Assembly: GCA_977020255.1 (NCBI GenBank) | Contig: CDROCS010006113.1 | Span: 124,001 to 188,000, forward strand | Direction: 5' to 3' | Source of the DNA: Obrimoposthia wandeli | Taxonomy: Eukaryota | DNA length: 64,000 bases | Shown here: positions 1 through 61,862 of the stretch, piece after piece | Layout of the letters: each line of letters opens with the position of its first letter | How positions within the stretch are numbered: position 1 is the first letter of the stretch | Translations under genes and position numbers: made by a program | The notes under the pieces: model-generated | What the model was told of the DNA's origin: nothing | What the model saw: only the letters and a program-made list of their open reading frames with translations | Databases searched by the model: none

Positions 1-1569
1 GGGTGTAAGTCTTCAAGACTATAATGAGGCCCGTAATTTTGGGATAATGATTGTCGAAATCTTCTAGATTATATGCTTTATTAGATGAAGTTAGACATTT
101 ATCTTTTAGCTGATGTTTTTGAGTCCTTTCGTGAAATATCTTTAGCAAAAGATGGGCTAGATCCCATGCATTTCTTTAGTTTACCTGGTCTTTCATGGGC
201 AACATCAATAAAAACTCTTAAAATTAATATCGAGTTACTGCAAGATCCCGCGATGTATCAAATGTATGATTATGGTATACGCGGTGGAATGACTTTTGTC
301 AACAAACATCATGTTGTCAAAAATCAATCCACAGAGATTCTGTACATCGACATTAATAATTTGTATGGGTGGGCGCTTACTCAACCTCTACCTCATGTCA
401 ACTTTAAGTGGGTTTATGACAAGGAAGAGTTGAATAAGTTGATGACAGATTTGGCTACTGTTGATACAGTTTCATCCGACGTCGGCTATTTGGTTGAGGT
501 GGACATAAAAATCCCTCCCAATGTGCATGATAAATTAGATGATCTTCCAGTAGCGCCTGTTCATCAATGCCCACCTAATTCAAAGGTTTAGAAATTATTG
601 TTAACACATGAAGACAAGTTGAATTATGTGGTGCATTGGTGGCTTCTTCAATTCTACTTAAAGTTGGGAGCAAAAGTTACTCGAATTCATCATGCTATAA
701 GCTTCAGTCAAAACTTTGTGTTTAAAGATTATATTGAGAATAATTCTAGAAAATGTAATTTGGCCACTACCAAATTTGATCGAGATTTTTACAAGTTAAA
801 AAGTAATAGTCTCTTTGGAAAAACTGTAGAGGACTTGCGGAAACGTATTTGTCTACGGTTTTGCAATGATGAGCGAAAACTAATAACATATATTAGCAAG
901 TACAACTTTAAGCGTAGTTTTACAATAGCAGATGACTTGGTAGCAGTGTTATTAGGAAAACAGAGTATTTGTCTCGATCGACCAAGTTATATAGGTCAAA
1001 GGGTTTCAGACATTTCTAAACTCAGAATGTACGAGCTGCAATACATAGAATAAGAGAAATATCGACAAGAATTCAATTGTGAGATCAAAATCGCAGCTGG
1101 GGACACTGACTCTTTCTTTTTAGAACGTAGGAATGTAAGTTTAGATAGTCCATTATTACCGGCAATGTTTAGGGACAACTTACTTGATATCCATAAATAT
1201 ACCATTAACCATTCTCTACACTCTATGAGTTTAAAGGATATTATCGGGAAATTTAAGGATGAAAGCGACGGTTAGTTTTCGTATGATGATTGTATTTTCT
1301 TCCGCTCTAAATGCTACAGTTTACATGCATCTAATAATACATGTTCAATGAGAGCAAAGGGTGTGGGAAGAAACAATCTTACACATGAGGCATACCGGAA
1401 AGTGTATGATACTGGGTGTATTGAAAGCATTGAGCAAACTAGATTTATTTCAAGAGCCCATCAACTGTATTCCAATAAATCAACCAAAATCGCTTTGAGT
1501 AGTAATGACGACAAGCGCTTTTGGGTAGAAAAGAACGCTAGCCTGGCTTATGGACACTTCCGAATTTAA
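1..1569 (+). pseudogene. Protein-primed family B DNA polymerase (pPolB), C-terminal part with stops/frameshifts
   Basis: Motifs across ORFs 85-591, 598-1053 and 1348-1569: LLADVFE, GIRGG, YIDINNLYG, KLKSNSLFGK, GDTDS, GKFKDE, RSKCYS, DDKR. Confidence 0.95.
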
Positions 1570-1747: not shown

Positions 1748-3240
1748 CATATTTTTATTCTAGCATATTCTAATCTCTCTTTGTTACTTTGTTAATGGTA
1801 CCTTTACCTTTTTTGCAACTGATATTCTCATCGGAACTAACTGTATTAAATACATCAAAATTGGGATATAGTTCTACAAATTTGAATTTCTTCAGTTCAA
1901 TGTTGAAAAATTGATCGTTTTTCTTTAATTATACTTTTACGACTGATTTTTTCAATTACCATTTCGTTCATCCAAATCTCCATGATGATCAATTAAACTT
2001 CCAATTCTTAGATATCTTTTGTATACACATTATAATTTATTGTACGTATATTTTGAGAGATTCTGTATAAATATGCCATTTAAAAATTATGAAATGATTT
2101 TCATCGGATAAATTTTACGTGTACTTTCTTTTCACCTCTTTGTTCTGCATCCTGGACTCACATTTTTTCACCACCATCAGTACAATTGTTTAATATTGCA
2201 GCTGATGCTCTACAGCACCTTCGTAAGCAAACAACAAGATCAACAGCAACAGAAGCCTGCCTCAAGTGACCAGGCTAATGGTGCCACACTGTCATCATCC
2301 AGCAGCAACCCTTGCTTGAGAGATCGAAACTCCAGCATGGATAGAAGTGCTGCCGCACGACGGGGCGCTTCTGCTCGCTCCGATGACGTCAGCAGCAAGG
2401 CATGCAGCATCATGTGATGTCACTGATGCAAAATGTAGCTTCAGGTCACCTCAACTACTCACCATTTCACATTCCAAAAGTTTTCAGTGTTCACTATGTT
2501 TGTTTGCTATATTACTCATTTAATTCATATGAAAACATTTGCAAAAACGGAGATTAAAATATCATCAGTTGTTCTACTCACTGTAAAAAGTAAGCATGAT
2601 ATTAACGTTTTATGCACTCGCTTTATTTAATTGTTACATTGTTTATTTTGTGGAAATGAAGTCAAAGAAATACTTTTATGGTCAAGATTTCATAAATTGA
2701 AAGTATGAAACAAAAACTTCTAAAAGTAATTAGTTAAATAATTTTTCAAAATAAGTTTTTTATTAACTGAAGAAAATCTCTAGTAGTTTTGATCATTAGG
2801 AAATATATTCTCACACGAAACTGCTTTTAAATGTGATATTTATACTTCTATTTGTTTCAAATGATTGACTATTTTCTTTGCGTTTGTTATATTTTATATT
2901 GTAGAAAATGTTTGAAAAAAATGAAATCAGTCTAATAGTGCTGTTTGCTTTTTTTAAAGATAAAATATCGTATTGCTACATTACGTTCTTATTTAATTAT
3001 GAAAAAATTATTGATTTTTCAAGAAATTTCAACTTTTATTTTGATTAATTAATAAAAGTCAAATTTGCTTTTAACAATTATTAATTAGTCATCTAAATAC
3101 ATTGACTTTAAAAATGATTGATTTTGACTAATTTGATCATACTGTATCAATTTAGAAACTGCACTATTACATTTTTTCAGATATTGATATGATTTTGTTA
3201 ATTATTGAAAAAGTCTGAAACATTCCTTAACTTAAAAGAC
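1748..3240. repeat. 1.49-kb inverted copy of 9759-11252 inserted between pPolB and the capsid gene
   Basis: Near-identical reverse complement of 9759-11252 with only a few substitutions/indels; the same 73-aa ORF appears at 2196 (+) and 10582 (-). Confidence 0.95.
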
Positions 3241-3261: not shown

Positions 3262-4080
3262 TTTACCCTTATTAAAGCTGCATTGAACTTAATTTCTAGT
3301 CGTAAATTTCCATCCTTTAGTAGTTGGCATTGGTTTATATCAAAGTCTGGTGCCAAACCAAATGTAAAGAAGTACTTTTAAACTCAGTGAAAGAAATACC
3401 ATTGTTTATATTTTTATCTAGTTGACCCAAATTCCGAATAATAGATTGGGTATAAGCCAAAGCATAAGCGTCACCTTTGAAATCTGTTTTATATGTTTCG
3501 CGATAATCAGTATTTCTTGAAAGTGTCACTGAACCTACACTAAGATTGTCAAATTGAGTTGCATCTGTCGTATAATTTCCTAGAAACTTTGCAGTTTTTT
3601 GAAAAGAAATTAAAATGAATTTCGGTAATCTTACATTACCAAAAATTTGATCCTTATTAAATGCTTGTGTACCCGTACCTAAAGAGTTGGATATAAGTTT
3701 AGTTTCTCTAATAGGATAACAAGCATTGTTTTTTTCCATTCCTATATTATGTGCCATTAAAACTGATTGCTCGGTTTAAACTCTTCGGACATACAATTTT
3801 GCATCCAAAATATCAAGTCTAGGTTTTAGAACGTCTGTGCTTATCAAAGAAAAATTCCATTTATTACGTTTCAAACAAAGATGTACATTAACACCGGGAA
3901 TTAAATATTTCGGTTGTTCAAAGAAATTCAATCTCATAGACCCACATATTTCGTAAGCTTTAGATTTTTTAATTCATACTTTGCGAGTTGCAGCCGTTTT
4001 AATGGTATTTTGATTAGTATTTTAGTATTAGTATCAGTACTATAATTCAATAGACTTTCAATCAAAGCTTGTTTTTTCAT
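3262..4080 (-). pseudogene. Polinton major capsid protein (double jelly-roll) relic, N- and C-terminally truncated
   Basis: Translation QALIESLLNYS...RLNFFEQPKYLIPGVNVHLCLKRN...DAKLYVRRV...DQIFGNVRLPKFILISF...GNLRLEIKF matches the Polinton/adintovirus MCP pattern as recalled; in-frame stops present. Confidence 0.8.
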
Positions 4081-4089
4081 GATTAAATT

Positions 4090-4266
4090 ATTTTGTAAAA
4101 TAAATATGTGAGTTTTTTCTGATAGTAATTGGAGAATAATAAAAAGAAAATTCTGTTAAAGCCGCTTTATAGGATTTTCCCAATCGATAATAAAGCTACT
4201 AGCGTCATTATCTGGTTGAGTCTTCGGGCATCCGTTACTAGGTAAAACTATATACATTGACTTCAT
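4090..4266 (-). pseudogene. Minor capsid (penton-like) protein N-terminus, truncated by deletion
   Basis: MKSMYIVLPSNGCPKTQPDNDASSFIIDWENPI..AALTEFSF resembles the Polinton penton start (Y.TLPSN...N..S.F...EVAL.E). Its ATG overlaps the integrase TGA (ATGA, 4263-4266). Confidence 0.65.
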
Positions 4267-4895
4267 ATTATATTAGATGCTGATATCCAAGTTGGGTCTG
4301 AATAACCATGCCATTTAACAAAGTATTGTTTATGTTCACCGGCACCCTTAGATTTTAATATTTTTGAATGCGGAAAACGCTAGGTTTATTTGATATTACT
4401 TGTAGTTCTTGCTCGTAAAATTTACTGTGAACGATATTATTGTCAGCATCTTTAATAGTATACATTATTGGATTACTATTTTGATCAATTTTACTTATAC
4501 AAAATATTTCATGGCTCCAATTCTGATCAAAGATTTTAATAAATGGAGTAGAGCTAATTTTAGAAATTCGAACATATTCGTTTTTCTTATATTTAGCTTT
4601 TTTAATATTTTTTTATTATTCCTGTCCATCCAAATATCCATATAGTTTTTATTAGTAATATCAACAGGTTTCATTCCCTTGAGACCTCTATGTTCAGAGT
4701 GATTATATGCATGTATTATTTTAGGTAAAACTTGGATACATTTTTTATTTCCTTCTTTTGTGAAATACATTTTTATTCGATCTCTTAAAGTACGATTAAA
4801 TCTTTCTACTACTGCTGCTTTGTACTGTGAAAACACTGAGTAGTGATTTATATTATTTTGTTTAAATAATGAATGAACTTGCTTATTATAAAATT
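4263..4895 (-). pseudogene. Polinton retroviral-like integrase, C-terminal half with chromodomain-like tail
   Basis: AAVVERFNRTLRD, AYNHSEHRGL, then after a frameshift YVRISK...NWSHEIF...FYEQELQ...VFRIQKILKSKGAGEHKQYFVKWHGYS. Confidence 0.92.
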
Positions 4896-5043
4896 TTACT
4901 CGACACAAAACTATATTATTCAAAACTTCCAATAAATCATCTACAACAAAAGATGGAAATGCTTTAAGAATAATCATTCTCTTATGAAAAGAGGCTTTGA
5001 CCAAAGCTTTAAAATAGGGTATGCTTCTATGTATTTTCTTCAT
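4896..5043 (-). pseudogene. Small Polinton ORF (MKKIHRSIPYFKAL...) fused in frame to the integrase by a deletion
   Basis: The first ~50 aa of ORF 4495-5043 do not match the integrase N-terminus of copy 3; identity to copy 3 resumes at aattttataataagc (~4895). Confidence 0.6.
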
Positions 5044-5169
5044 TTTAACTTTTATTTTTAAATACTGATTTGATTAATTTATTCACTTCTTTATTCTTAA
5101 TGATTCTTTTTTTGATTTATTAGCCTTTGCTTTACGTTTTACTATCAACTTCTTAAAAGGCATTGCACA

Positions 5170-5817
5170 TTTATTTTTATAATTGTTCTCTATTTGTTTA
5201 TAAACAGTTACTCCCTTAGAATTAAATATGTATGTTAAAACACGTAAATCATCTGGGCAAGCTTGTGTAAAGTCAATAAATATATACCCATGTGCTTGTT
5301 TAGCAGCATCATGGAATGAATCAACTAGAAAGTTCTTATTTTGGGAAAATGCCTGTCTGGCCACAAAATCTACAACTGTTTGATCTCTAGGATTTTTAAA
5401 TAAAACTAAGTAATGTACATTAAGATTTCTTGTTCTACGCTGACCTCCTTGGTGAAAAAGATTTTGAGTGATAAATATAACTGTTACTTCACGATGTCTT
5501 GCAATCTTTGTAAATAAATTATTAAATTCCGATTCCTTGTTAGCTTCCTGATACAAATCATCAATTATTATTACATCTTCTTTTTTCTATCTTTCACACC
5601 AATTTGAATCAAATCCTTCAATAAATTGTATTCCCTTCAACTTGCAAACTTCTGTTTTGGTTAATCCGCTTTCCCCTCCTCCATAATTATGCCAATAAAC
5701 ATTTTTGAAACTAGAATTGAAAAGAGATTCATTTTGCAACAATTTACATACGAAATGTGTCTTTCCACTTCCACTGGGACCAACTATTTGAAATACAGCA
5801 TTATTATTTAGCTCCAT
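5170..5817 (-). pseudogene. A32/FtsK-like DNA packaging ATPase (disrupted)
   Basis: Walker A GPSGSGKT, Walker B IIIDD, IARHR and ITQN motifs, FKNPRD; split by a stop/frameshift near 5587. Confidence 0.92.
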
Positions 5818-5854
5818 TACATATACTCTTTCATTTTTAATATTGTTTATATTA

Positions 5855-6136
5855 TCATAGAAGTTTCCTTATTGAAATGTACAATTTTAGAGCTATTGTA
5901 GATGAAATACAAAAATTAATTAATGAATATTTGGCTATAATTTTATTTATTTGTGTACGATTTCTAAATTCTCGAATAACGTGTGATCTAACCAATATTT
6001 CAATGTTATCTCTTGTTATATCATTATTTTTTAATTCTGATAAAATTTGTTTACCCCTAATTTTTCCAAAAAATATTTTGTCGAAAAGACGATCCACTTC
6101 ATTGTCGGTATATATAGTATTATTAATTTGAAACAA
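5855..6136 (-). CDS. Unknown ~90-aa Polinton ORF between TBP-like and ATPase genes
   Basis: Open in copy 1; homologue at 62392-62664 carries one internal stop; no recognisable motif. Confidence 0.55.
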   Translation of the reverse strand: MFQINNTIYTDNEVDRLFDKIFFGKIRGKQILSELKNNDITRDNIEILVRSHVIREFRNRTQINKIIAKYSLINFCISSTIALKLYISIRKLL

Positions 6137-6155
6137 TAGGTTTAAACGGGTTAGT

Positions 6156-6658
6156 TTATAGAAAAGATAACAAGATGTAATAATATATATTTTCTAAAAT
6201 CAAATCAACAATGTCTTGATAATCAAAATTTTTTAATCTCAATATCATAACTTTACCACTGGAAAATATATTTACACATAAAATATGTAGACTTCAAATA
6301 ACTGAGAGCAGGAAAAATTTCTGGTTCAAACATGCATTCTTCTTTCATTTTCTCTGCAGTATTTAAAAAATTTATCTGTTTCCCAAGATTAGCCAAAATC
6401 GTGATTGATTGTATTGCAGTGTTTCGAATTCTAAATGGTAATTCAAACTCAAGCATAGGTATTTTGCATCCCATAACACGACAATTTCCTAAAATAATTT
6501 AATATGAAAATAAAATAAAAAAACTAACCTGCAGGAAAAATAACAACTGTGAAATTGTCAAATTTTATCAGATATTGTCTCGGCTTCCATTCATTGAATG
6601 GTAAGTACGAAACATCATCTTCTATTCTACCGTTATAATTTATATTTACGAGTTTCAT
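6156..6658 (-). pseudogene. Spliced TBP-like gene, copy 1 (exon 6529-6658, intron 6489-6528, exon 6156-6488; late frameshift)
   Basis: MKLVNI...TVVIFPA-G / GNCRVMG...FEPEIFPAL; 40-nt GT-AG intron; frameshift after YLK relative to copy 3. Confidence 0.85.
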
Positions 6659-6934
6659 TAGACTAAAATTGTATTCTTCAAAATCTTCTTTATATATGTC
6701 GAAACCTGCTTTTTTATTACATGTTTCTTGTAATTATCTTACAAACCTATTACAATTGGATGATATATTTCTTCCAAACAAATTTGATTTTTGATATGGA
6801 TTTAGTCCAATAAAATTCAATGCTTTAGTTATATTAACCAATGAGATTCATGTCTTTGTTAGAAATTAGTATAAAAGAATGCGCCATTGGAGAACAAATC
6901 ACAATAAATGCATTCATATCAAAGACAATTATCA

Positions 6935-7390
6935 ATGATGGACGATAGCCAACGGATATTAAGCGGTGACGAAGATAGAGAAATGTTTGAAGAATCGGAT
7001 AAGGATATGTATGAAGAAGTGAAATAATATTTCAAATACAAAGTCAGGTTCTTGAAGAAGGCTCAACTGATTGCTTTAGTAAATCCTGTAACAATTGAAA
7101 GAAGAAAGTTGAGCTATTATCTATCAAATATACAAAAACCAGATTTTCAATATCTTAAACAGAAAGTTGAAAAGACAGTTCCAAATTTTACTTTCAATAA
7201 GAACGAATTTTATATTCGAGAAGCCGATGCAGCATATCTAGATGACTATGGAAGAGAAATAGATGTTAATGCGTTTCCGAAAAAGAAGTAATGGACTGTA
7301 ACAATTCGACTTTATGGTTACAAGAAAGATGAAATGGGAACAAAGTTGCCTATGTTGAAAATTAAACGTGCTCATATTGCTATGTTTTAA
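6935..7390 (+). pseudogene. Polinton accessory ORF A (~150 aa, unknown; paralogue of ORF B)
   Basis: Two TAA stops (near 7024 and 7289) that are CAA in other copies; also present in copies 2 and 3. Confidence 0.7.
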
Positions 7391-7514
7391 CTTTTTTTTT
7401 CATTTTGCATGTAATAAATTGTATTCATTTTTACTTTGTTTCTTTCATTTGGCAATTAATAATCAGTTTTATTTTTTTTAATATTTGTATCTTATATGTA
7501 TTTTTTTATAAACG

Positions 7515-7950
7515 ATGCTTTTTAATCAGTTTCCTTATTTTAGAATGGATCCTCTTCTGAGATGTGTAGGAAATTTTTATTATCCAGAAATAATTTCAAA
7601 AGGAAAACTATGTAATATATTAAAGAGGCATCAAATCATACGAGTTATGAATCCTATGAAAATATCAAAATTGGCCAATAAATATTTCATCGAAATTTTA
7701 ACAACATCTGATATTGATCAATTGAAAAATATTTTGGGATTTTACATTCCTGATTATGTATATGAAGGAAATTGTTTCCAGTTTGAAACTGATCCCAGTC
7801 TGACTTTTAAAGATGATCTAGGATATTTGATTTCTCCAATTCTAGATGAAGAACTATGGAATATCTCAATACGTCTCAATGGATATTTTGCTGATGACAG
7901 GACTCTTTGAGACTCTTTGAACTTTGAGTGAAGCCAATATGGTGTTTTAT
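7515..7950 (+). CDS. Polinton accessory ORF B (~140 aa, unknown; paralogue of ORF A), C-terminus frameshifted
   Basis: 131-aa ORF; copies at ~19400-19817 and ~60640-61020; copy 3 gives the C-terminus IRLN.YFADDGEMQPLWTLSEANM. Confidence 0.7.
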
Positions 7951-8249: not shown

Positions 8250-8349
8250 GAGACACACATGCACGAAATTTCACTCCACACACATGCACGGTATTAAAGG
8301 ACAGTGGTATCCCCCCGGGGGTTGATTAAACCGGACACATCCACCTACT
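8250..8349. repeat. Terminal inverted repeat of Polinton copy 1 with subterminal GTGCATGTGTGTGGAGTGAAATTTC units
   Basis: Matches the ends at 19128, 21838 and 60172. Confidence 0.9.
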
Positions 8350-9758: not shown

Positions 9759-11252
9759 GTCTTTTAAGTTAAGGAATGTTTCAGACTTTTTCAATAATTA
9801 ACAAAATCATATCAATATCTGAAAAAATGTAATAGTGCAGTTTCTAAATTGATACAGTATGATCAAATTAGTCAAAATCAATCATTTTTAAAGTCAATGT
9901 ATTTAGATGACTAATTAATAATTGTTAAAAGCAAATTTGACTTTTATTAATTAATCAAAATAAAAGTAGAAATTTCTTGAAAAATCAATAATTTTTTCAT
10001 AATTAAATAAGAACGTAATGTAGCAATACGATATTTTATCTTTAAAAAAAGCAAACAGCACTATTAGACTGATTTCATTTTTTTCAAACATTTTCTACAA
10101 TATAAAATATAACAAACACAAAGAAAATAGTCAATCATTTGAAACAAATAGAAGTATAAATATCACATTTAAAAGCAGTTTCGTGTGAGAATATATTTCC
10201 TAATGATCAAAACTACTAGAGATTTTCTTCAGTTAATAAAAAACTTATTTTGAAAAATTATTTAACTAATTACTTTTAGAAGTTTTTGTTTCATACTTTC
10301 AATTTATGAAATCTTGACCATAAAAGTATTTCTTTGACTTCATTTCCACAAAATAAACAATGTAACAATTAAATAAAGCGAGTGCATAAAACGTTAATAT
10401 CATGCTTACTTTTTACAGTGAGTAGAACAACTGATGATATTTTAATCTCCGTTTTTGCAAATGTTTTCATATGAATTAAATGAGTAATATAGCAAACAAA
10501 CATAGTGAACACTGAAAACTTTTGGAATGTGAAATGGTGAGTAGTTGAGGTGACCTGAAGCTACATTTTGCATCAGTGACATCACATGATGCTGCATGCC
10601 TTGCTGCTGACGTCATCGGAGCGAGCAGAAGCGCCCCGTCGTGCGGCAGCACTTCTATCCATGCTGGAGTTTCGATCTCTCAAGCAAGGGTTGCTGCTGG
10701 ATGATGACAGTGTGGCACCATTAGCCTGGTCACTTGAGGCAGGCTTCTGTTGCTGTTGATCTTGTTGTTTGCTTACGAAGGTGCTGTAGAGCATCAGCTG
10801 CAATATTAAACAATTGTACTGATGGTGGTGAAAAAATGTGAGTCCAGGATGCAGAACAAAGAGGTGAAAAGAAAGTACACGTAAAATTTATCCGATGAAA
10901 ATCATTTCATAATTTTTAAATGGCATATTTATACAGAATCTCTCAAAATATACGTACAATAAATTATAATGTGTATACAAAAGATATCTAAGAATTGGAA
11001 GTTTAATTGATCATCATGGAGATTTGGATGAACGAAATGGTAATTGAAAAAATCAGTCGTAAAAGTATAATTAAAGAAAAACGATCAATTTTTCAACATT
11101 GAACTGAAGAAATTCAAATTTGTAGAACTATATCCCAATTTTGATGTATTTAATACAGTTAGTTCCGATGAGAATATCAGTTGCAAAAAAGGTAAAAGCT
11201 ACCATTAACAAAGTAACAAAGAGAGATTAGAATATGCTAGAATAAAAATATG
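9759..11252. repeat. Probable source of the 1.49-kb inverted duplication (partner 1748-3240)
   Basis: Reverse complement of 1748-3240; its 3' end continues seamlessly into a Tc1/Tc3-like relic, whereas the other copy stops abruptly. Confidence 0.9.
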
Positions 11253-17700: not shown

Positions 17701-20700
17701 TACAAAGATTCACACACTATGAAACATCCATAGTGATAAAGTAAATGATTCTGGGTCAATAGTGTAAAAGGTTTGCGTACCAAGAAATGAAAAGTTCGCG
17801 TCAGCAGAGCTTTAGGATTCTCGACAAAGTTAACATCTCCCTCCAGAGCCCGACCATTGGCGGAGCAGGGATAAATGGCAACCCGTATCAAGCCTTCCTC
17901 CTCGCCATCGTAGCTTATGATCGGAATTTCGTCGTCGAAGTCGAGATTGTAAGCCAAAGCTTGCAAAAATGCATTGGCTGTGCCCACCAACACCTCTTCC
18001 ACCGGCTCCCAGAAGGGGTCATCTTCTTTTCTAATTTGTTTCTGAACTCCAGTTTGTTTGCCTTTACTGTTCGTCGTCTCCAAGTACTTATGGTACAGCT
18101 CCTAGAATAGAAAATTATAATTGGTATAAAGAACTCTTCTATCGTTCCAACTTAATTATTATTAAGTAAATTACTTAACTATTAAAGTAACTTTCTGTTC
18201 TTAATATCATCAGTCATATTTTTGACGATCTACGGCAAACCACGGTGCAACTCCAGATGTAAGAAATTTAGAATTGCAACTATATAATGCTAATTATTGA
18301 TATAGATTTATATATATAGAAAATAAGTATTCATAAATAACGACATAAAGTTTAAATAATGAATTTTCTAATTAGTGATAAAAAAGTGAATTGTATAATT
18401 TTCAAATATTTGGAGCAATCAGTATCGCCTGGAATATACCGTTAATTGCATTGGCTGCATGAATATTGATTTTGCATATTTTCCGAATAAAGCTCTAATT
18501 AAAGTTTGAGAATTACTTTTTAAAAATAAAAAACAGTGAATTCTATGATTTAAAAATATTTTTGAACTGTTTAAAAATTACAGTATTTCATTATATACTT
18601 TATAAGAAACAAAAATGCCACATAAACATATTCCGAATTCGTAAAATTTATTTGAGGTAAATGATTAAACGATGTAGATTTTTTTTAATTCGTAAAGTAT
18701 ATTACAGAAAAATAACTAAATTACATTTTAAAACTTATAACAGAACTTATTCTATTGTTTATGAATCCAACAGTATTTTCTAAGGTAACATAAAATGCAA
18801 CTTCCGGGAAAGTTCTATATTATTTAGAGTTTTGTCAGGATTTAATTTATAAGGTACGTACTTGCATCAAGAATCTTCGATTCATGAATTTTCCTCGTTC
18901 CCAGAGCCAGAAGTTTCCCGTTTTAGTGTCTGACACTTTTATCATAATCCTGAAATTCAAGATAATTTTGTCAAATTACCAATGAGTAATGCTCAATAAA
19001 AATCCTAAATATAAAAACGGTTAGTACTATCTATCATACCTAATCAATCAATGTATATATAAGATAAGATAAGAAAACTGTATTCATAGTAAAAACATGC
19101 AGAGAATTAAATTCTCTATAGCAATACAGTAGGTGGATGTGTCCGGTCTAATCCACCCACTCCCCCCACCCCAAAAAAATTTGCCCCTTCCGGGGAGAAT
19201 CACCCCACCCCTCCCGCTTCTTAGGGGCGGGCTCTATTCACACCCTCCGGACGCGAAAATAACTACAAAAATCTTGCCCTCCGGGCGCTACAATATTTTT
19301 CATTAACTTTATCCATCTACACATACCCTACCTCTCACACATCGTGTCATATCACTAAAAATTACGAATTCCTTAAATCTATTTTTAATACCATATTAGC
19401 TTCACTCAAAGTCCCAAGAGGCTGTATTTTCTCGTCATCAGCCTAATATCCATTGAGACGTATTGAGATATTCCATAGTTCTTCATCTAAAATTGGAGCA
19501 ATCAAATATCCTAGATCATCTCTAAAAGCCAGACTGGGATCAGTTTCAAGCTCGAAACTATTTCCTTCATATACATAATCAGGAATGTAAAATCACAAAA
19601 TATTTTTCAATTGATCGATATCAGATGTTGTTAAAATTTCGATGAAATATTTATTGTCCAATTTTGATATTTTCATAGGATTCATAACTCGTATTATTTG
19701 ATGCCTCTTTAATATATTACATGGTTTTCTTTTTGAAATTCTTTCGGGATAATAAGAATTTCCTACACATCTCAGAAGAGGATCCATTCTAAAATAAGGA
19801 AACTGATTAAAAAGCATCGTTTATAAAAAAATACATATAAGATACAAATATTAAAAAAAATAAAACTTATTATTAATTGCCAAATGAAAGAAACATAGTA
19901 AAAATGAATAAAATGGATTACAATTTATTACATGCAAAATGAAAAAAAAAGTTAAAACATAGCAATATGAGCACGATCAATTTTCCACATAGGCAACTTT
20001 GTTCCCATTTCATCTTTCTTGTAACCATAAAGTCAAATTGTTACAGTCCATTGCTTCCTTCTCGGAAACGCATCAACATGTATTTTTCTTCCATAGTCAT
20101 CTAGAAATGCTGCATCGGCTCCTCGGATATAAAATTCGTTCTTATTGAAAGTAAAATTTGGAACTGTCTTTTCAACTTCCTGTTTAAGATATTGAAAATC
20201 TGGTTTTTGAATATTTGATAGATAATAGCTGAACTTTCTTCTTTCAATTGTCACAGGATTTACTAAAGCAATCAGTTGAGCCTTCTTCAAGAATCTTTAC
20301 TTTGTATTTGAAATATTATTTCACTTCTTCATACATATCCTTATCCGATTCTTCAAACATTTCTAAATCTTCGTCACCGCTTAATATCCATTGGCTATCG
20401 TCCATCATTGATAATTGTCTTTGGTACGAATGCATTTATTGTGATTTGTCCTCCAATGGCGCATTATTTTATACTAATTTGTAACAAAGATATGAATCTC
20501 ATTGGACGTGAGACGGCATCCTGCTGCCCTCGCGAATCTGGAAGTATTGCCGGTTGAGGTGTATCCAGTTCCGCCAGGAATTCGTCCAATCCAGCTTCAT
20601 TCCAGGCCCTCTTCAAGTTCTGGCTGGTTGTTGTCAGAGGAGAAGCAGTCTCCCAAGCCCAGGCCAAATTTTGGTTTATACTCAATGAAGCCGGCGATGT

Positions 20701-23700
20701 TTCCTGCAGGCGTCGTTAACTCGGTGGCGGACTAATCTCGATCAGAGAGACATGTATTCTCTCGTACATAATTGGCTCGTCGTTCACTGGAGATGGGAGA
20801 ATCTTCTACTGGCCAATCACCGCCTCAGAAGAATTGAGCTTTGTGGTACGACATTTTCTCGAGCGCTTCGTTTTCCGAACCTCTGCTTTCTTCGTCCGTT
20901 TCTTGGGGAAAGGAGTAATTTCTCCCCAATTATCTGAACGGGTTCCTGCAACAACAAAAAACATTAATAAAATTTAAACATATAAATAATTTACCTCCAT
21001 GACAGGCAGGTTAGCCTGTTTTACCAACTTGGTCTTCTTCTGATGAACCGTCTGGATTTTGACCCGATGGCGTCGCGGTTTCCTAACCGCCGCTTGCTTC
21101 CTATCTATCGGTCGCATCTTCGAGAAATTTCTCCACCTATGTGAATTATTAAATTTATTATCTAATTAAAAAATAATTTACCTTAACATTATCTGGAGAC
21201 GCTAGGTATCGGAGCTCACTCCTTGGCAGCTCCTGGCTGCATTGACTCGCCAAGTATTGCGGTTCTATCAGTTTCTCCACCGTGGTCACCGACGGTGCTA
21301 TATCCAGTTGAAATTTCTGAAAATGAAATTAAAAAAACATTTTAAATAATTGAAGTCTAACCTCATTCATTGTCTTTATTCTGCTAACAGCACGTATCGG
21401 AGATTGCGGCCTTTTGAATGGTTCAGGCACCGTATTATCCGCTATCGGAGTTGGAGTGAGACCATCCCAATCGTCAGTGAACAGGCACCACTCGTCCTCA
21501 TCCTGGAGCTCCAATACTTGGCTATATCCATTCGTCGATGAGTGGAGTCCTGTCCTCCTCCCCATGCGACGGTACGTCATCGGTGAACAGCTCCCCGTCT
21601 GAGTCTGGTGCGAGGACATTCTCCGGCTGAGACAGAGGGATCAATTTCCAGGGGCGTTTGATTGCCACCTCAAAATTGCCGCTTTTAAATTTTTTTTTAA
21701 AATTTCACTACACACATGCACGAAATTTCACTCTACACACATACATGAAATTTCACTCCACACACATGCACGGTTTTAAAGGACAGTGGTAGCTCCCCCG
21801 GGAGAGGGGGTGTATTAGACCAGACACATCCACCTACGCAATACACAGTAAGGTGTCTTCTACTTCATGTAGGACCAATGAATCTCCATGGGAGATTGTT
21901 TGTGCGACACTGCTTGGTGGTAATAATAAATAATAACTCACACAGTACGCCGAACCGTGCCGTACACAGCATCCTGTGAGTTGGGAGGCACTAAAATCAC
22001 AAAGAACTTCTTGAATTTCCCCAGCTCTTCTGAGATTGCATTCACTTCTCCGACCATGGGGATGATCTCGAGTATTTGTTGCTGTACAACTTGTTGATCT
22101 GAAGAAATGAATTCAGAAAAATCAATCTTATCTTATGGATGTTTTAAGAGTTGTCTTAGAATCGTCAAACTCATCAATGATTTTTACTTCAAAAGAAATC
22201 TTCGTCATTCAAATTTATAAAATAAACATACGTAAGAGATCGTAAATTGAATATATGTTGTAAAAATTCGTCGCTTTTCCAATACGATTCAAAAATGTGA
22301 TACGGGAAATTTGCCGTGTCAAATAGCGAGATTCTTAAATAAAATTAGAAATATTATCCCATTTCGTTTAAGACACACTATATTCGTCACGTGACGAATG
22401 GTGATGCAAGATTATATGTGTGATGAGGGAGATATCGACTTTTCCATATTATCTAAATGTAAAAAATAACGACAATTGAACATTTTCCCGTGCCAAATTG
22501 AAAGTAGAAATGGCAAAGGGAATTTTCCCGTGTCAAATAGACGGCAGAATTGAAGTATTTAAATGCTTCTTTAATAAATTTTCTCTACACTTGAATTTAA
22601 ATTTAAAGTTTCATATTCAATTTGATGGAAGTAAAGAAAATGTGAATTTGACATATTGAACGCAAATTATGATTAAAGGTCATTTCCTTTCTCTGTTCGA
22701 CGACGTTCACTAAAAGGGTCGTTGTTTACTGAGTCATTTACACTAGAAATTTGGTTATCTATGTGAATGACACAAAATAATATTTACTGAAAATTTGAAA
22801 CAATTTCATTCAACAAATAAAAAGTTATTATCGGTTTGTAATCGTTTATGTTTCTCTCAATAACCTTTACTAATATATTGGCCTTTAAATAAAAAATATT
22901 TAGTAATTCTATGAAGTATTTAATCACTTTGATATATTTAGCAAACAAAAATTTCTAAAAATTTAATTTGGAAAACAATTAAATTATCTAGATCTAAAAT
23001 GGAAATGACCTAAACTAATCGTTCGACAACAGAAAGTAACTCCAACCTTTGGTTAGGCCTTTGACATTTTCAGTTTCTAAGTTTGACTAAAAGCAAGAAA
23101 ATACACAACTTCGAGGACTTGAAAGAGGCAGTTACCATGAAAACTTTAAATAGACACGAAATAGAGAAAGTAAGAGAAAAGTCCACTTATTTCGACAGTG
23201 GAAATGAAAATTCGATTGGAGTAGAAGTCGTGGAGTTATTCACACGCAAATAGAAAAGTTATATTTATACACAAGTGTGTGAAAATGTATTTGGTGGGGT
23301 AATTTTTTCGAGGCCTCTCAATCATAATGAATGCCTGCAGGATTTTTTTCCTATCATTTACGATCATACCGAAAACAGGGAAAATGTGTTTTTTCGAAAA
23401 TCCAAAAATCTCGGTTGAAAAACTCGAATATTTATAATTTTCCAATTAAATCTTCACCACTGTGTAGCCAGAGACGCCTTCTACCTTTCTTACTATAATT
23501 GTCATTAAGTTCGAACAATTTTATTTAACACTTTAACGCAAAAAGCCGAGAAACAGCTATTCTTTTCAACTTTCGAGGTCAATTATCTAGATCTAAAATG
23601 GAAATGACCTCAAACTAATCGTTCGACAACAGAAAGTAACTCCAACCTTTGGTTAGGCCTTTGACATTTTCTGTCTCGAAACCGTCGGCTTGAGCAATTT

Positions 23701-41700: not shown

Positions 41701-44700
41701 ATTAGTATTGTGTTTTTTTGCTGACACCTGTCGAAACTCGATAGTCAAAATCATCAAAGTTGAACATTACCTATATTAAATTAAAAATAAAATTGTGAAT
41801 CTGAATGAACTTATTATAGGTCTAAGCAGGGCCTGGGTCGTTTGACATGGGCCTCTGAATTCAAGAGGCCTCCAAAATTTAGATATAATTTTTTTAACAA
41901 ACTATGCAAATCTTTTAAAAAAATTATTTAATATTTTTACGTAGAGCAACAAAAAATTTCCTTATAATAAATCTAATACAACTATGAGAGGCCCAAATTT
42001 TTGGCATAATTCTACTTTCCCTTGCCCCAAGATCGTGTAAATGGTTTGGCAACGCTGGATATTAATTGGGACATAGCGAGAAATTAGGACTATTCCCAAA
42101 TAATAAGTTCATTCGCAGCTCTAAAGACTTGAAAAGCGCTTTTACAAAAATGTTTCAGTATAAAGGGGGCCACATATATTACCTGACATGGGCCTCCAAG
42201 TGGATCTTACAGGGTCTAAGCACACAAACCTTAAAATTGACGATGACACCACAAGGCACATGTAGACACAAAAATAACGGATTGAATGCGACGAAGCCTT
42301 TATTTTACATTATAGAAAAATATTCAATATATGCTGACACATAAAGGGTCAATTAATTAACGTTTTGTGGTCTTTAAAATATGTTATACTCTTATATTTT
42401 TACTCTCTACAAATTATTCGTTGTATTCTTTTTCGGTTCGAATTGATTTAGTACAGCTTTCTACCTTTGCAGGTTCAACTTCAGTTTCTTGTTTCCCTTG
42501 TCTTTTAATATTTTTCCCATTCAGACATTTTTTGCTCACTTGATCCGTCCATTTTTATGGTCAATTGTATATTTTAATGTTTTACACAACTTAATTAAGA
42601 TGAAGAAAATTAATACATGTAGAATAAACTAGAATAAAAATGTAAAAATATCAAAAATTTTAATTTTGTTTCATTAGAACAACAAAACTATAATGTTTGT
42701 AGTTTGTTTTCAATTTTTTTGAATCCAAATATTAATGCATTTTATTACTTACATCATATTTTTTCACAAAAAACGTTTTCGATATTAAATTCCAATTTTC
42801 ACAAACACTTTGAAGAAAGAACAAATGAAGAACTGCGAGAGCAAAAATTATTATCCATGTACCAGAACGCTTTTTAGTACAATAACGAAATTAAATAGCT
42901 TATTATGATTTGAAATTTTACGTTTTTGGCGCTGCAGAGATTCGAATATATTTCTTAAAAGGTTCTTTATTGCCACAAATTAGAAATAGAAACAACAAAA
43001 TCCAGTGCCTTCAGTAGGTAGAAGGATGGAGTCTAGATTACTTGACCCCCCCTGTGTGCGCACACAATGTTAAAGGATTTTTTTTCAACATAAGGGTGTC
43101 TTGCCACACCATAAGGGTATATGTTGCCTCACCATAGAAATGTCACACCATGAAGGTATATGTTGACTCACCATAAGGGTGTCTTGCCACACCATAATGG
43201 TCTGGCTCAGAAAGGTTAAGATAGGGGGGAGGGGGGAAGGGTCAATTGATCTAGTCTCCACCCTTCTTTGGTATACCACTAAAGGGTTGTGGTCGTCCAT
43301 AATTTAAAGGGTCAGGCATAGTTTTGACTTGAAGGTTTTAAGGTATGGTCATGACCGTCTATGGTTGGCCATCACATCTAAAGGGTTGTGGTCGTCCATA
43401 AATCAAAGGGTCAGACTCAGTTTTGACTTGAAACTTTGAAGGTATAATTAAGGTCAACTATGGTTGGCCATAACATCTAAAGGGTTGTGGTCGTCCATAA
43501 ATCAAAGGGTTGGGCTAAAAAAAAAAAAAATTAAATATCAAGGTTTTAGTACATGGTTGTAATCATCTTTAGAAGGTGAATTCACCCATAAAGTATGGCC
43601 GTCCATAAATCAAATGGTCGAGCTAAAGATCAAATCAAGTTTTAAATGTCAAAGTTTGAATACATGGTTGTAATCATCTTTAGAAGACGAATTCATCCAT
43701 ATAGGTATGGTTGTTCATTGATGAAGGGTTAAAGAAAAGTAGGAATTTCATAGTTTCAAGTACATGGTTGTATTCGTCAACATATTACGAGTTTATTCAT
43801 GTAAAAATTTTATGGTCGTCCACAAGTTAAGGGTCAGATTTGGCATAAGTTAAGGAATTATATAGTAATTAATCAATTATTCTATGTGAAAGTTCACTCT
43901 TAACAGTTAAGGAATGTATTACGTAATCACACACACACTATTCTATGTGAAAATTTAGTCTAAAGTTCACTCTTATCAGTTAAGGAATGTGGTTATTAAC
44001 ACACACACTATTCTATGTGAAAATTTAGATCAATGTTTTTTCCTAGGCTTACACATCTAAAGAATTATGATAAAATTTCTTTAAATAACTTAAATTATAT
44101 ATTAAAATTTAAAAAAAAATAATAAGAAAGAAGTTAGAAAATAATACAAAATTAAACATATTTATTATGTAATTTCATAATATCATCTTCAACTCAAGTG
44201 AATAACATTTGCAAAGTAAGAAAATCCATTCTTTATACATTCTTTCCGATTTAACGACTAAGTTACAGCGGAAAAAAAAACAAAACACTAAGTTTAACGC
44301 TATGAATGGAAATTAGTAAAATATTAATTTATTTGAATATTTGAATGATAGTTTGAATAAATGAGAGTTAGATTGAATGTAAATGAATACAAGTATGAAT
44401 CCAAATGAATGCAAATACAAGTAAGAGTCTTAGCAAGTGAATGTAATTTAAAAATAAGAGTGTCGAGAGTATGATTGAATGTAAGTATAATTTAGACTAT
44501 AAGTAAATTAAAATCGATTTTCGTAAGAAACTATAAGAAGCAGTGATATTGAGTTATGTTAAAAGTTAGAATGACTAAGTTACAGCAATATTAATAGAAA
44601 ACAATACTATGTTTGACGGTATAAGTGAAAATTAGGAGAATATTAATGAATTTGAATGCTACTTAGAATGATTGTAAATGAATACAAGTATGAATCCAAA

Positions 44701-47700
44701 TGAATGCAAATACAAGTAAGAGTCTTAGCAAGTGAATGTAATTTAAAAATAAGAGTGTCGAGAGTATGATTGAATGTAAGTATAATTTAGACTATAAGTA
44801 AATTAAAATCGATTTTCGTAAGCAACTATAAGAAGCAGTGATATTGAGTTATGTTAAAAGTTAGAATGACTAAGTTACCACAATATTAATAGAAAACAAT
44901 ACTATGTTTGACGGTATAAGTGAAAATTAGAAGAATATTAATGAATTTGAATGCTACTTAGAATGATTGTAAGTGAATACAAGTATGAATGCTAGTATGA
45001 ATGTCAATACAAGTAAGTGTCTTAGCAAGTGAATGTAATTTAAAAATAAGAGTGTCGATAGTTTGATTGAATGCAAGTGTAATTTAGACTATAAGTAAAT
45101 TAAAATAGAGTTTTCGTATGAATAAAGTTATGTTAAGTTACAGTTAGATTAATAACAAGTAAGCAACTATAAGAAGCAGTGATATTGAAGTATGTTAAAA
45201 ATTAGAACGACTAAGTTATGGCAAGATTAATAGAAAACAACACTAAGTTTGAAGATATGAATGAAAATTAGTAAAATATTAATGTATTTGAATGTAATTG
45301 AATGATAGTTTGAATAAATGACAGTTAGATTGAATGTAAATGAATGCAAGTATGATTGAATGCATCTACAAGTACAAGTAAGAAAGAATACGACTGCAAG
45401 TGCGAATGTCAATTATGAATGAAAATTAGTAAATATATTAATGAATTTGAATGCTAGTTTAAATATGATAGTTAGAATGAATGTAAGTGAATGCAAGTAT
45501 GAATGCAAATACAAGTAAGAATCTTTGCAAGTGAATCTAAAAATGCAAGTGAGTACTAGCTAATTATTAAATTAATACTATCAATCAATGAAGATGATGT
45601 AACAACCTGATGAAGTTATAATAATTAAGATGTTAACTTTCATATTTTCACATAGTTTACCCCATGTTAAAGTTAACCTTTCATACACACTCATGCAATT
45701 AAATAATTAAAATGTCTTATCTCGTTTAATAACATTCCTTAATTGAAATATTTTAAAATAAATAGATAAATTTAAATTCTTTATTTTTTAAATAACTTGA
45801 TTATAAAATTATATTCGTAAATATAATTGAAATTATCATTATTCGTTTCTCTTTTTAACTATTCGAAAATATATTTATATACAAATTTAGTAAATTAACT
45901 CAACAAACAATTTTATTTTTTTTTAATTACTTCATATTTTTGCCTTTCTCTTATCAATATAATATGAATATTCAATTATTTCTTCAAAAATTCTTTTTTA
46001 TGTTATATAATATTTCTTTACCACATAATGTGGTATTTTATCAAGTGATTTTAACTTTAAACTATTAAAATTATTTTAATTATAAAGTTAGTACCTGTAC
46101 CCCACCGACTGCCTATAATATAAATTTCAAATATAAAGTACTATTAAATGTATTCTTTCAAATAGTAAAAGTTCTTTCGAGTTATTTAGTTTTGTTTACT
46201 AGACATTCGAAAATTGACTTGTAAACATAATATTTTTTTGCATATATTTAGTTTAACATTTCTATGGTGAGGCAACATATACCCTTATGGTGTGACACCC
46301 TTTAACTTGGTGTGCGCACACAGGGGGGAGTCAAGTGATCTAGACTCCATCCTTCTACCTACTGCCTTATTGTAAGCGCCCGTGTTAAATCACCCGTCTT
46401 CAGTCGGCACTGCATACATATTTGTATTATAAAACATTTAATAGTTACGTTGCAGCAAAATATGGCTGACATATAAAAAATACTAATATAGAAAATAGTA
46501 TTTTTCTTCTCAATAAATCAATGATTTGCCACACTTTTCAAACTGAGACACTTATTTTAAAGATGAAAATCCGACACACCAGTAAATTTTTAAAAAATAA
46601 AGTCGAAATACGGTAAATAAGAAAACAACAAAATTCATAAATTTGTATTAAATAAAAACTAAAGAGAAACCGGTTCTCATTACAAAGTGCATATACTTGA
46701 AATTCTAAGCTTACTCACATTTCTTCGAAAACTGTCTTTAGTCGCTCTCTCTCTCACTTTCTGTTTGTTGTTGTAGCTAATATTTATCAGGACAGAAAAT
46801 CTTGATTCGCAGAGATAAAAACGGAATAAAAATTTTCAGGGCCAATTTCAATCATGTCCATCTGGATTTTCTACTTTTAATGTAAAGTAGTTTCCAAACT
46901 CTGTTGTCTCTTCTTGTTGATTAATGCTTAAATTCATTCCTTCACATTCCAAAAGCTACAATTTTTAGGAATGGGTTTCCGACATAATCGGAATTGATAG
47001 TTAATAGGTTTGGATATTAATCATTCAAATGTTTCGAAATTATTTTAACTGTACCCACAAATTCTGATAGGAAACATTTCCTATTTACTTTAGGTTTTAA
47101 AATTTTGTATTTTTGCTGTTAACACTTTTAGTTTGTCTGAGCTAGTTAAAATATTCCCCCCTCTGCTTTGAAAACACAAATGTTAAATCTATTGAAATTT
47201 TTGAATACACCTGTTAAGCACACGCACCAAACATTTTCCAAATTCCCTTTTCATTCTTGTTTAAATGTAGTCGACATTTCTTGCTGCATTTCAGAAGCTA
47301 TATCCCAAGTCTTTCCTCAGGATAACCGTCTCATTTATGTATGAAGAAGAAGTAACAACTGTAGAGTACTTCATATTCTTGATTACAATTGTCTACTCAT
47401 AATAGAACTTATCATATCGACATCATACGCTGTAGATGTAACCCTAATGCTTTTACTATTCATACTTGGATATTAGATCTAGACTTTGATTTTTCGCGTA
47501 TTCAAGGAAATCCTTAAATTTACAGAAGATATCAAATAGCTAAACGATAAGAAACATTTTTAAATTGCAACAACGAAAAAAGATTTCAATAATTATAAAT
47601 TTGAAATGAATAAATATCCATTTCTACCAAGTGTGGGCAATTATTTATCCAATAAACAAGAGATGATCATAGAACCTTATTTGATACACTATACAGATAA

Positions 47701-60171: not shown

Positions 60172-60639
60172 AGTAGGTGGATGTGTCCGGTCTAATCCAC
60201 CCCCCTCAACCCTGTCCTTTAAAATCGTGCATGTGTGTGGAGTGAAATTTCGTGTATGTGTGTGAAGTGAAATTTCCTACCCCACCCCCACTGTCCTTTA
60301 AAACCATGCATGTGTGTGGAGGTAAAAATTGAAAAAGCATCGAAGAGGAGGGAGGGGGGTCCTCCCCATATTTTTTATTTTACTTGGAAATTTACCACGA
60401 AAGTGGTTAGAGAAGACCACGGGAATCTATATTGACCCCGGCGGCTTATCGCAGACGAGATTTCAAATATATTACTAATATTTTTAAGAAAGATTACTAA
60501 ATGTTAAATATTTAGGTCACTTTAGAATTTATAGGATAAAAAATCGGTCAGATCTATATAATTTAGAGGAGAAAAAACAAAATACGAGTCAAAATTATGT
60601 TTCAAAACATTTATTAAACATAAAACAACATATTGGCTT

Positions 60640-61610: not shown

Positions 61611-61862
61611 GATAATTGTCTTTGATATGAATGCATTTACTGTAATTTGTCCTCCAATGGCGCATTCTTTTATACTAATTTCTAACAAAAACATGAATAT
61701 CATTGGTTAATATAACTAAATCCATATTAAAAATCAAATTTGATTGGAAGAAATATATCATCCAATTATAATAGGTTTGCAAGATAATTACAAGAAACGT
61801 GCAATAAAAAAGCAGGTTCAAACATATATAAAGAAGATTTTACAGAATACAATTTTAGTCTA

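Follow-up and report, generated by a model that had tools for sequence, protein, structure and literature searches.

The window, the whole 64,000-nt stretch of DNA from the flatworm Obrimoposthia wandeli that was analysed, holds the broken middle of a gene inside a ~2.7-kb Polinton deletion derivative with a 6-bp target-site duplication (TSD). This 2.71-kb derivative (19128–21838) has Polinton termini and is flanked by identical TSD copies at 19122–19127 and 21839–21844. Its left terminal inverted repeat (TIR) and subterminal sequence (19128–19386, plus strand) start with the terminal motif at 19128, and parts of 19170–19390 match DNA near both ends in other copies. The adjoining sequence of the ATPase/integrase-side arm (19387–20505, plus strand; 88–94% identity to window 6838–7946 and 60629–61706) is fused directly to the cut gene, which lies on the minus strand. 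The 3' half of exon 1 (21362–21678), acidic with W/F patches and with a frame break near 21500, is followed by predicted intron 1 (21317–21361, 45 nt), exon 2 (21182–21316; 45 codons, open in this copy), predicted intron 2 (21137–21181, 45 nt), the K/R-rich module of exon 3 (20995–21136; frame break near 21110), predicted intron 3 (20946–20994, 49 nt) and the 5' part of the last exon (20506–20945), which carries a basic module, an S/T-P-rich stretch and an acidic LDEFL helix; all three introns are phase 0. In the last exon the frame breaks again near 20930, and the cut at 20505 leaves ~95 codons missing at its 3' end. On the outer side, the right TIR and short internal repeats (21679–21838, minus strand) match termini at 8349 and 60172 and contain TTTAAAA at 21689. 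Residues 128–185 and 190–246 of exon 1 fall in different frames of the window copy (tblastn), which lacks both SIM-like motifs along with the family start codon and promoter. The window copy of the gene is a dead fragment.

Several elements of the first-pass annotation of this fragment were borne out: the three GT-AG segments are present as described, retention of intron 1 or 2 introduces an in-frame stop, exon 3 runs into a stop after 11 codons of frame 0 and stays open in the following frame, and the sequence switch at 20505/20506 is real. Its guess that the region represents the other end of a Polinton family was also right. The proposed gene model needed revision. The ATG at 21619, taken as the start, is private to the window copy (0/28 other aligned copies), and the first ~35 codons of the proposed 86-aa exon 1 are read out of frame, since 29 nt near 21500 that 25 of the 29 other copies have are missing from the window copy. 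TTTAAAA, read as a promoter, belongs to the terminal repeats and not to the gene-homologous part, whose start is at 21678; it stands near the gene only because the window copy has lost the promoter region, the distance from the terminus to 21678 being 160 nt here versus 624–1050 nt in 15 of the 18 other copies with a terminus. Instead of the suggested 4-nt ATAG duplication, exon 3 has lost 11 nt (142 nt versus 153 nt in 26/30 loci).

Across the family, the AT-rich GT-AG segments align in position in 30/30 copies examined (locus L050, with a wrong flank, was left out). In the window copy, intron GC is 0.11–0.18 compared with 0.50–0.52 in exons, and whereas three AT-rich GT..AG segments were observed, even one appeared in only 1/1000 dinucleotide shuffles. 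Donor and acceptor dinucleotides were GT in 29/30 and AG in 28/30 loci for intron 1, GT in 28/30 and AG in only 24/30 for intron 2, and GT in 27/30 (GC in 1/30) and AG in 28/30 for intron 3, and exon 2 measures 135 nt in 22/30 loci. Thus GT-AG ends are conserved and the frame is kept across junctions, as for U2-type introns. The family reading frame begins ~470 nt farther upstream than the window-copy gene model, and the family gene is predicted to encode ~580–640 aa with 3 or 4 tiny introns, measuring 43–50 nt and 76 nt. A start was found in 20/30 copies, and a TATA box precedes it by 41–48 nt in 19 of the 20 three-intron copies with a start. In four DNA-like runs of unknown kind, from one sample of one study, intron depth equalled exon depth, and none of the joints listed (15 of 775 and 15 of 19) skips a predicted intron, a result that speaks neither for nor against splicing.

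The family comprises hundreds to thousands of copies in the O. wandeli genome. All 40 scored candidates matched the gene DNA, and exon 1 was matched at essentially full length by 150/150 scored matches, these being the best 150 copies. Elements read from the terminus through ~0.8–1.1 kb to the gene, small ORFs and pPolB on the same strand, with MCP, integrase and ATPase converging from the opposite end; the gene is therefore the first from one terminus, pointing inward and upstream of pPolB. Among 20 copies picked for an open exon 1, a terminus was found within 1.2 kb upstream in 15 and a same-strand pPolB downstream in 14, with an exact 6-bp TSD pair in five and a one-mismatch pair in two more. 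In copy 1 of the window, the gene lies 460 nt inside that copy's other, TSD-matched terminus, just beyond the window. The pPolB family PF03175 was matched at window 85–588 (26.7 bits, above the cut-off) and 592–1050, and decayed integrase, ATPase and capsid fragments gave rve_3 at E 0.003, Pox_A32 at E 0.02 and a double jelly-roll-like match at E 0.07, all under the curated cut-off; rve integrase, A32-type ATPase and double jelly-roll capsid were linked within one element, which we counted as marking a Polinton. At the family level, the gene adjoins the terminus, reads inward, is coding and of low complexity and has predicted splicing, as first proposed. Every sampled copy is damaged (0/24 whole-length four-intron rows are lesion-free). 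Three other Polinton families of the O. wandeli genome, searched in partial, nested pieces, yielded no homologue beyond two 32-aa matches at E 0.07–0.1, and the gene is therefore not universal among Polintons.

We next separated changes in 65 aligned rows into singletons and those shared by at least four copies. In the spliced frame, omega was 0.37 for states common to at least four copies and 1.04 for singletons, whereas the shifted frames gave 1.09 and 1.24, so purifying selection is confined to the spliced frame. Exon 1 (omega 0.32, p 2.7e-12) was constrained in all four of its blocks (0.27–0.36), making this acidic exon, and not the basic repeats, the most constrained part. The last exon reached 0.53 (p 3.8e-5); exon 2 (0.49, p 0.11) and exon 3 (0.46 for shared changes, p 0.067) were not significant alone, and the extra exon described below gave 0.79 (p 0.79). 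As positive controls, pPolB, ATPase and MCP gave 0.16, 0.18 and 0.44. Exonic indels were multiples of three in 7/8 shared versus 41/124 private cases, and shared 1–2-nt indels lie in introns. The reading frame of the gene is kept under purifying selection at the family level.

A sister subfamily carries an extra 177-nt phase-0 exon, one copy having a diverged 171-nt version. Exons 3 and 4 and the beginning of exon 5 repeat one another (scores reached by 0, 0 and 3 of 2000 shuffles); these basic modules are tandemly repeated in variable copy number, and exons 3–5 are 20–25% K+R. In a midpoint-rooted tree without an outgroup (60/65 rows; five dropped for low cover), extra-exon copies fall in one clade together with some copies without the exon. 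Exon number has changed within the element lineage, by gain or loss.

In a charge-hydropathy plot, all five exons lie on the disordered side of the boundary, and AlphaFold pLDDT was low (46 and 52), although the shallow alignments (13 and 7 rows) would be expected to lower it as well. The protein carries acidic aromatic (W/F) patches, the LDEFL helix, basic modules and a C-terminal KPGRPK, whose core is without the flanking arginines of a canonical AT-hook. Two SIM-like motifs, YIDLT (51/65 rows, gaps in 6) and YIDLL (48/65 rows, gaps in 7), are each followed by SQDS and have Tyr where the SIMb core has Val; that core is VIDLT in PIAS1 (PMC3901395). No match to LXCXE, CR1 (DEN)(LIMV)XX(LM)(FY), CXXC or PxDLS was found in five natural exons; the pPolB leader instead bears a Cys motif and acidic Trp repeats. 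In homology searches, four exons drew no Pfam family at E 0.1; a word-index protein search at near length with the last exon gave 0 matches among 526 candidates, a search of longer proteins with exon 1 gave 0 among 3781, and viral_contigs and metagenome_contigs yielded no homologue. Phmmer against 1.84 billion representatives gave three matches, all repeat artefacts, and the best ESM Atlas scores (0.76 and 0.78) serve as leads only. No search showed sequence similarity to adenovirus E1A/E4, and a literature search outside Repbase and most subscription papers found no description of the gene.

The wider question is how integrated Polintons become active, and whether, like their adenovirus relatives, they follow a regulated early/late programme. 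We hold with roughly even confidence that this selected, predicted-spliced gene, the first inside the terminal repeat, encodes a probably disordered early nuclear hub that helps to activate or un-silence the other genes of the element. Host RNA polymerase II would transcribe it from the TATA ~41–61 nt before the family ATG, and removal of 3 or 4 host-style mini-introns would yield a disordered protein of 580–640 aa. To judge by its motifs, the protein could enter the nucleus through its basic clusters and grip the AT-rich DNA of the element with the AT-hook-like KPGRPK core and the exon-sized basic repeats, two or three in number. Co-activators may be recruited by the acidic W/F patches and LDEFL helix, and the two YIDL(L/T)-SQDS motifs may be docking sites for chromatin or silencing factors modified by SUMO. 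Its mode of action would then resemble that of adenovirus E1A or herpesvirus IE proteins, to which it is unrelated. We infer this hub function, like the label 'regulator' given at first, from short motifs, which are common in disordered proteins, and the pPolB leader, with its Cys motif and acidic Trp repeats, could be the activator in place of the first gene. An orphan, selected, multi-intron gene that sits where an immediate-early gene would be expected provides a concrete candidate regulator.

Alternatively, the product of the same gene might condense DNA as a core protein or bind the ends to help replication or integration; its repeated basic modules would coat or bridge linear DNA, with the acidic half as self-chaperone. 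The K+R content, tandem repetition and variable copy number of exons 3–5 would suit such a role, as would the fact that none of the ORFs listed between the gene and pPolB was identified as a histone-like core gene. However, the gene shares its strand with pPolB and is distant from the convergent MCP/ATPase block, the strongest constraint is in acidic exon 1 instead of the basic repeats, and condensation would presumably need no tandem SIM-like motifs; we consider this explanation rather improbable. Slightly less probable still is a captured host gene with introns, kept for its effect on the host rather than for element expression, like the wasp proteases and krma kinases that are intron-bearing cargo of nematode Mavericks (Widen et al., 10.1101/2022.07.12.499685). 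Those elements are described with a high-GC, poorly conserved, intron-bearing 2–5-kb region beside the TIR, and in that study the intron-bearing genes are read as host cargo. Host CCT genes of the flatworm have exons of 40–50% GC and short AT-rich introns with the same donors as the element gene, and the failure to find the gene in the pieces of three other Polinton families would also fit capture. The region is high-copy and lies inside TSD-bounded Polintons, contrary to what a single-copy host gene or absence from other copies would predict; a single-copy host source could still sit behind the element copies that saturate own-genome searches, as could a lineage-restricted host orphan, these searches returning only the best 150 element copies. 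Against capture, public protein sets and Pfam yielded no homologue, exon number changed within the element lineage, and the pPolB leader has the same predicted intron style as the first gene, with its introns under selection, so introns are no sign of capture here. That the region is GC-rich spacer DNA without coding function, whose AT islands look splice-like by chance, would be in keeping with the damage to all sampled copies and the lack of homologues in the databases searched. This reading is largely refuted and very improbable: purifying selection is specific to the spliced frame, shared indels are triplet-sized, a phase-0 exon was gained or lost, and both TATA and ATG are conserved.

For the reading as an early nuclear hub, E1A offers an analogue. 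Adenovirus E1A is terminal in position and disordered. Like it, the flatworm gene is the first inside the terminus of a protein-primed linear dsDNA element and is predicted to be TATA-driven, spliced, acidic and disordered. The E1A/E4 analogy first drawn stands for position, disorder and predicted splicing and fails for LxCxE, CR1, CxxC and PxDLS: the flatworm protein lacks Rb, CtBP and zinc-finger motifs, is about twice as long and has basic repeats and SIM-like motifs, and its early expression is only presumed, whereas E1A is a first-expressed, spliced, multifunctional transcription factor (PMC9499273). The 'Oncoid' ORFs of adintoviruses (Starrett et al. 2021, PMC8502044) are likewise accessory ORFs upstream of PolB, a position that the flatworm gene shares, with a host-regulating role read from short linear motifs. 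However, the defining features of Oncoids are LXCXE/CK2, CR1 and paired CXXC, and the flatworm gene is without LXCXE, CR1 and CXXC; the main text of that paper does not contain 'splic'.

A further-reaching reading, which we regard as tentative and rather doubtful, is a Polinton family whose early arm is spliced in the manner of adenoviruses. The first gene would encode a modular immediate-early protein, new to this lineage, in which tandem SUMO-binding motifs and acidic activation patches are coupled to basic DNA-binding repeats that arose by exon duplication. This protein would act against SUMO-dependent silencing of transposons, and pPolB would likewise be produced from four exons, the first of three codons. 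If true, an E1A/IE-type switch would have arisen convergently in a Polinton, and intron-free ORF annotation would be under-calling Polinton gene content. Nematode Mavericks, in the account of Widen et al., similarly have a high-GC, intron-containing gene adjoining the TIR; yet their cargos are folded enzymes with numerous host homologues, in contrast to the predicted-disordered orphan of the flatworm, and their core genes are described as intronless, whereas the flatworm pPolB has the same predicted introns as the first gene. Vertebrate Mavericks (Barreat and Katzourakis 2021, PMC8097293) resemble the flatworm family in their 12–25-kb length, TIRs starting AGTAG, 6-bp TSD, two convergent modules and accessory regions flanking the core; the genes in that survey are reported as free of introns. 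The flatworm gene, previously unnamed, is of a kind that ORF-only annotation misses, and it offers a case of exon-sized repeat gain or loss inside a virus-like element.

The minus strand of 20506–21678 has a GC content of 50–52% and is broken by three GT..AG segments (45, 45 and 49 nt; GC fraction 0.11–0.18). A single such AT-rich segment occurred in 1 of 1,000 dinucleotide shuffles and three in 0 of 1,000, in agreement with the three short AT-rich interruptions described in the first-pass annotation. Its statements that retaining intron 1 or 2 brings in a stop codon and that exon 3, read in the frame of the exons before it, meets a stop after 11 codons also held on this copy. The gene fragment is enclosed by a 2.71-kb insertion (19128–21838) with a terminal motif at each end and an identical 6-bp duplication outside. 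The left part of this insertion (19387–20505) corresponds to the ATPase-side arm in the other copies of the window, so the window copy is a deletion derivative joining both arms. Compared with 29 other copies, it lacks 29 nt near 21500 (relative to 25 copies), 11 nt near 21110 (19 copies) and 10 nt near 20930 (26 copies); it has also lost the gene's promoter region and its 3′ end. The window copy of the gene is a dead fragment, and the N-terminus originally proposed was an off-frame reading of a copy without the 29 nt near 21500.

In a DNA search of the Obrimoposthia wandeli genome, we scored 40 of 10,915 first-look candidates (candidate counts are not copy numbers); all 40 matched the gene DNA, and 30 loci were kept, the window copy and 29 others with 85–88% identity to it. 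All 150 scored matches to an exon-1 protein query in the same genome were essentially full length. When the window exon–intron model was projected on the 30 loci, the donors of introns 1, 2 and 3 read GT in 29, 28 and 27 loci (plus one GC for intron 3) and the acceptors AG in 28, 24 and 28, with exon 2 measuring 135 nt in 22 loci and exon 3 153 nt in 26. The ATG first taken as the start (21619) occurs in none of the 28 other copies aligned there and had to be given up; the family reading frame opens ~470 nt further upstream. This family start was located in 20 of the 30 loci, with its ATG intact in 18 and a TATA box 41–48 nt before it in 19, and the last exon comprises ~240–250 codons, extending past 20505. 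In a second subfamily the exons measure 738/135/165/177/~702 nt and the four introns are all of phase 0; one copy carries a more diverged extra exon of 171 nt. Among 45 start-to-end copies, three AT-rich islands were present in 22, four in 22 and one in 1. Mean identity was 0.886 among three-intron copies, 0.921 among four-intron copies and 0.849 between the two, predicted protein lengths are ~580–590 aa and 639 aa, and every one of the 24 whole-length four-intron rows carries at least one lesion. One ~55-aa acidic-then-basic module is repeated in exon 3, in the extra exon and in the opening part of the last exon (repeat scores reached by 0, 0 and 3 of 2,000 shuffles); exon 2 is not a copy of it by the same comparison. 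We have little doubt that this is a real gene with the predicted splicing pattern given here; it is an apparently undescribed accessory gene of a Polinton family.

Layout was surveyed in 20 copies selected because their exon 1 is open. A terminus lay at most 1.2 kb upstream of the gene in 15, the protein-primed DNA polymerase gene (pPolB) lay downstream on the same strand in 14, and target-site duplication (TSD) pairs were exact in five and had one mismatch in two more. Elements with exact TSDs span ~8.6–19 kb, the longest holding a nested insertion, and at the opposite end the major capsid protein (MCP), integrase and ATPase genes converge toward the gene/pPolB arm. Polinton copy 1 of the window ends at 8349, and its opposite terminus, with the matching TSD, lies ~5 kb ahead of the window (L130:4947 on G000:C6113, the same genome); this TSD-bounded element is ~13.4 kb long and carries the gene 460 nt inside its far terminus. 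The terminus-adjacent position in family copies and in copy 1 bears out the earlier suspicion that the region is the unseen other end of the family. The pPolB match to Pfam was over the cut-off, those of integrase, A32 ATPase and DJR capsid were weak and on decayed fragments, and by these matches the element fits a Polinton/Maverick. Two fetched loci, L041 and L042, have fold-back or nested layouts in which the gene stands at either end, one copy inverted relative to the other. A 1,438-nt perfect inverted pair (1803–3240 and 9759–11196), one arm of which lies inside copy 1 between pPolB and MCP, is probably a young inserted transposon. On the ATPase-side arm, a minus-strand ORF at 6253–6498 carries the motif FEPEIFPAL, which we take to be TBP-like. 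Between gene and pPolB, another copy (L088, flipped, 3626–4546) holds two ORFs that by eye are a ~100-aa basic coiled-coil-like one and a DEDD-exonuclease-like one.

Pfam and database homology searches returned no family or homologue for the gene's protein. All exons fall on the disordered side of the charge–hydropathy line, and AlphaFold models from shallow alignments had pLDDT values of 46 and 52, with short helices only, in the last exon. Exon 1 is 19% D+E and exons 3–5 are 20–25% K+R. Acidic W/F patches are present, 47 of 65 rows have an LDEFL helix, and the KKPGRPKK at the terminus is exact in 16 rows and gapped in nine; these features resemble an activation domain and an AT-hook. Two YIDL(L/T) motifs, each followed by SQDS, are kept in 48 and 51 of the 65 rows, and no non-synonymous change shared between copies falls within them. 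The tight SIMb core of PIAS1 is VIDLT, with flanking acidic residues that matter (PMC3901395). The host SUMO exon had its best named matches in Macrostomum and schistosomes (72–80%), which identifies the host as a flatworm. For function, the most likely reading, at about even odds, is a disordered nuclear hub whose gene would be transcribed early by the host and spliced: basic repeats and a hook-like C-terminal end may anchor the protein on the element's DNA, co-activators may be recruited through its acidic aromatic patches, and the tandem SIM-like motifs (putative SUMO binding) may engage SUMO-marked silencing or chromatin factors. A DNA-condensing or end-binding protein is less likely, and captured host cargo slightly less likely still.

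Returning to the accessory gene, we estimated selection by a simple site count over 65 aligned rows, which is not a tree-based model and to which CpG hypermutation adds noise. Omega was 1.04 for codon states in one copy, which is decay after insertion, 0.61 for states in two to three copies and 0.37 for those in at least four; shifted frames gave 1.09 and 1.24 in the shared class. For states in at least three copies, omega was 0.32 in exon 1 (p = 2.7e-12), 0.49 in exon 2 (p = 0.11), 0.46 in exon 3 (p = 0.067), 0.79 in the extra exon (p = 0.79) and 0.53 in the last exon (p = 3.8e-5). Applied to other genes of the element, this count yielded omega values of 0.16 (pPolB), 0.18 (ATPase) and 0.44 (MCP), and no selection signal for ORF 7512–7907 in its listed frame. 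Shared exonic deletions were multiples of 3 in 7 of 8 cases versus 41 of 124 private ones, and shared intronic deletions were 1–2 nt. That the stretch is non-coding DNA is very improbable.

The front of pPolB, on the same arm, is a second predicted-spliced gene, whose first coding exon is 9 nt long and whose introns measure 47, ~80 and 47 nt. Across 22 rows, gaps included, its donors read GT in 16, 18 and 17 and its acceptors AG in 19, 16 and 20; omega was 0.28 in exon 2 and 0.16 in exon 3. With a TATA box, predicted exons and selection in the polymerase frame (L088, flipped, 4730–6500, and 21 further rows; upstream of window position 1), the family's pPolB gene appears to consist of four exons: a 3-codon first exon, one that bears Cys motifs as well as acidic Trp repeats, one of 87 nt, and an Ala/Ser/Thr-rich last leader exon that continues into the polymerase frame. 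Adenovirus pol/pTP have a parallel 9-nt first exon. Host CCT genes contain short AT-rich introns (41, 70 and ~84 nt seen) with donors GTTAGT and GTAAAT as in the element. Introns are thus a trait of the element, in a core gene as well, and agree with the way the host splices.

In intact vertebrate Mavericks, Barreat and Katzourakis observed no introns (PMC8097293). Nematode Mavericks have high-GC, intron-bearing cargo beside the terminal inverted repeat and intronless core genes (Widen et al., 10.1101/2022.07.12.499685), whereas introns are predicted in pPolB here. Oncoids lie upstream of PolB and are defined by LXCXE, CR1 and CXXC (Starrett et al., PMC8502044), motifs that, like PxDLS, are missing from the exons of our gene. 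In dinoflagellate Polinton-like elements, most introners were inserted after integration (PMC11957031); in contrast, the introns of this gene are common to copies and frame-preserving. The accessible text of PMC11161782, 10.1101/2024.03.25.586562 and PMC6431247 does not mention a gene of this kind. E1A is a first-expressed, spliced adenovirus activator (PMC9499273), and the first-pass analogy to it stands for position and build, not for descent.

A second Polinton family (L045:2393 to L123:6799, and L126) is 14.4 kb long with a 6-bp TSD and all core genes on one strand. Its pPolB shows 45–60% amino acid identity, and further ORFs resemble by eye IAP (BIR+RING), TBP and a dual-specificity phosphatase. 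Each of two further families numbers at least 150 copies; with pPolB copies 98–99% identical in amino acids, both are much younger than the window's family. Besides spliced CCT genes, ~20 intronless, near-full-length (~550 aa) Cpn60/TCP1-family ORFs lie on different contigs, possibly carried by a mobile element. L181 (G000:C2050:143400-145000) and similar matches are tandem arrays of diverged ubiquitin-like units with a ~270-nt period and a stop ending each unit. Repeat arrays at 43013–46363, with periods of 295, 99 and 111 nt, recur beside other copies (L008, L042) and are likely another mobile element.
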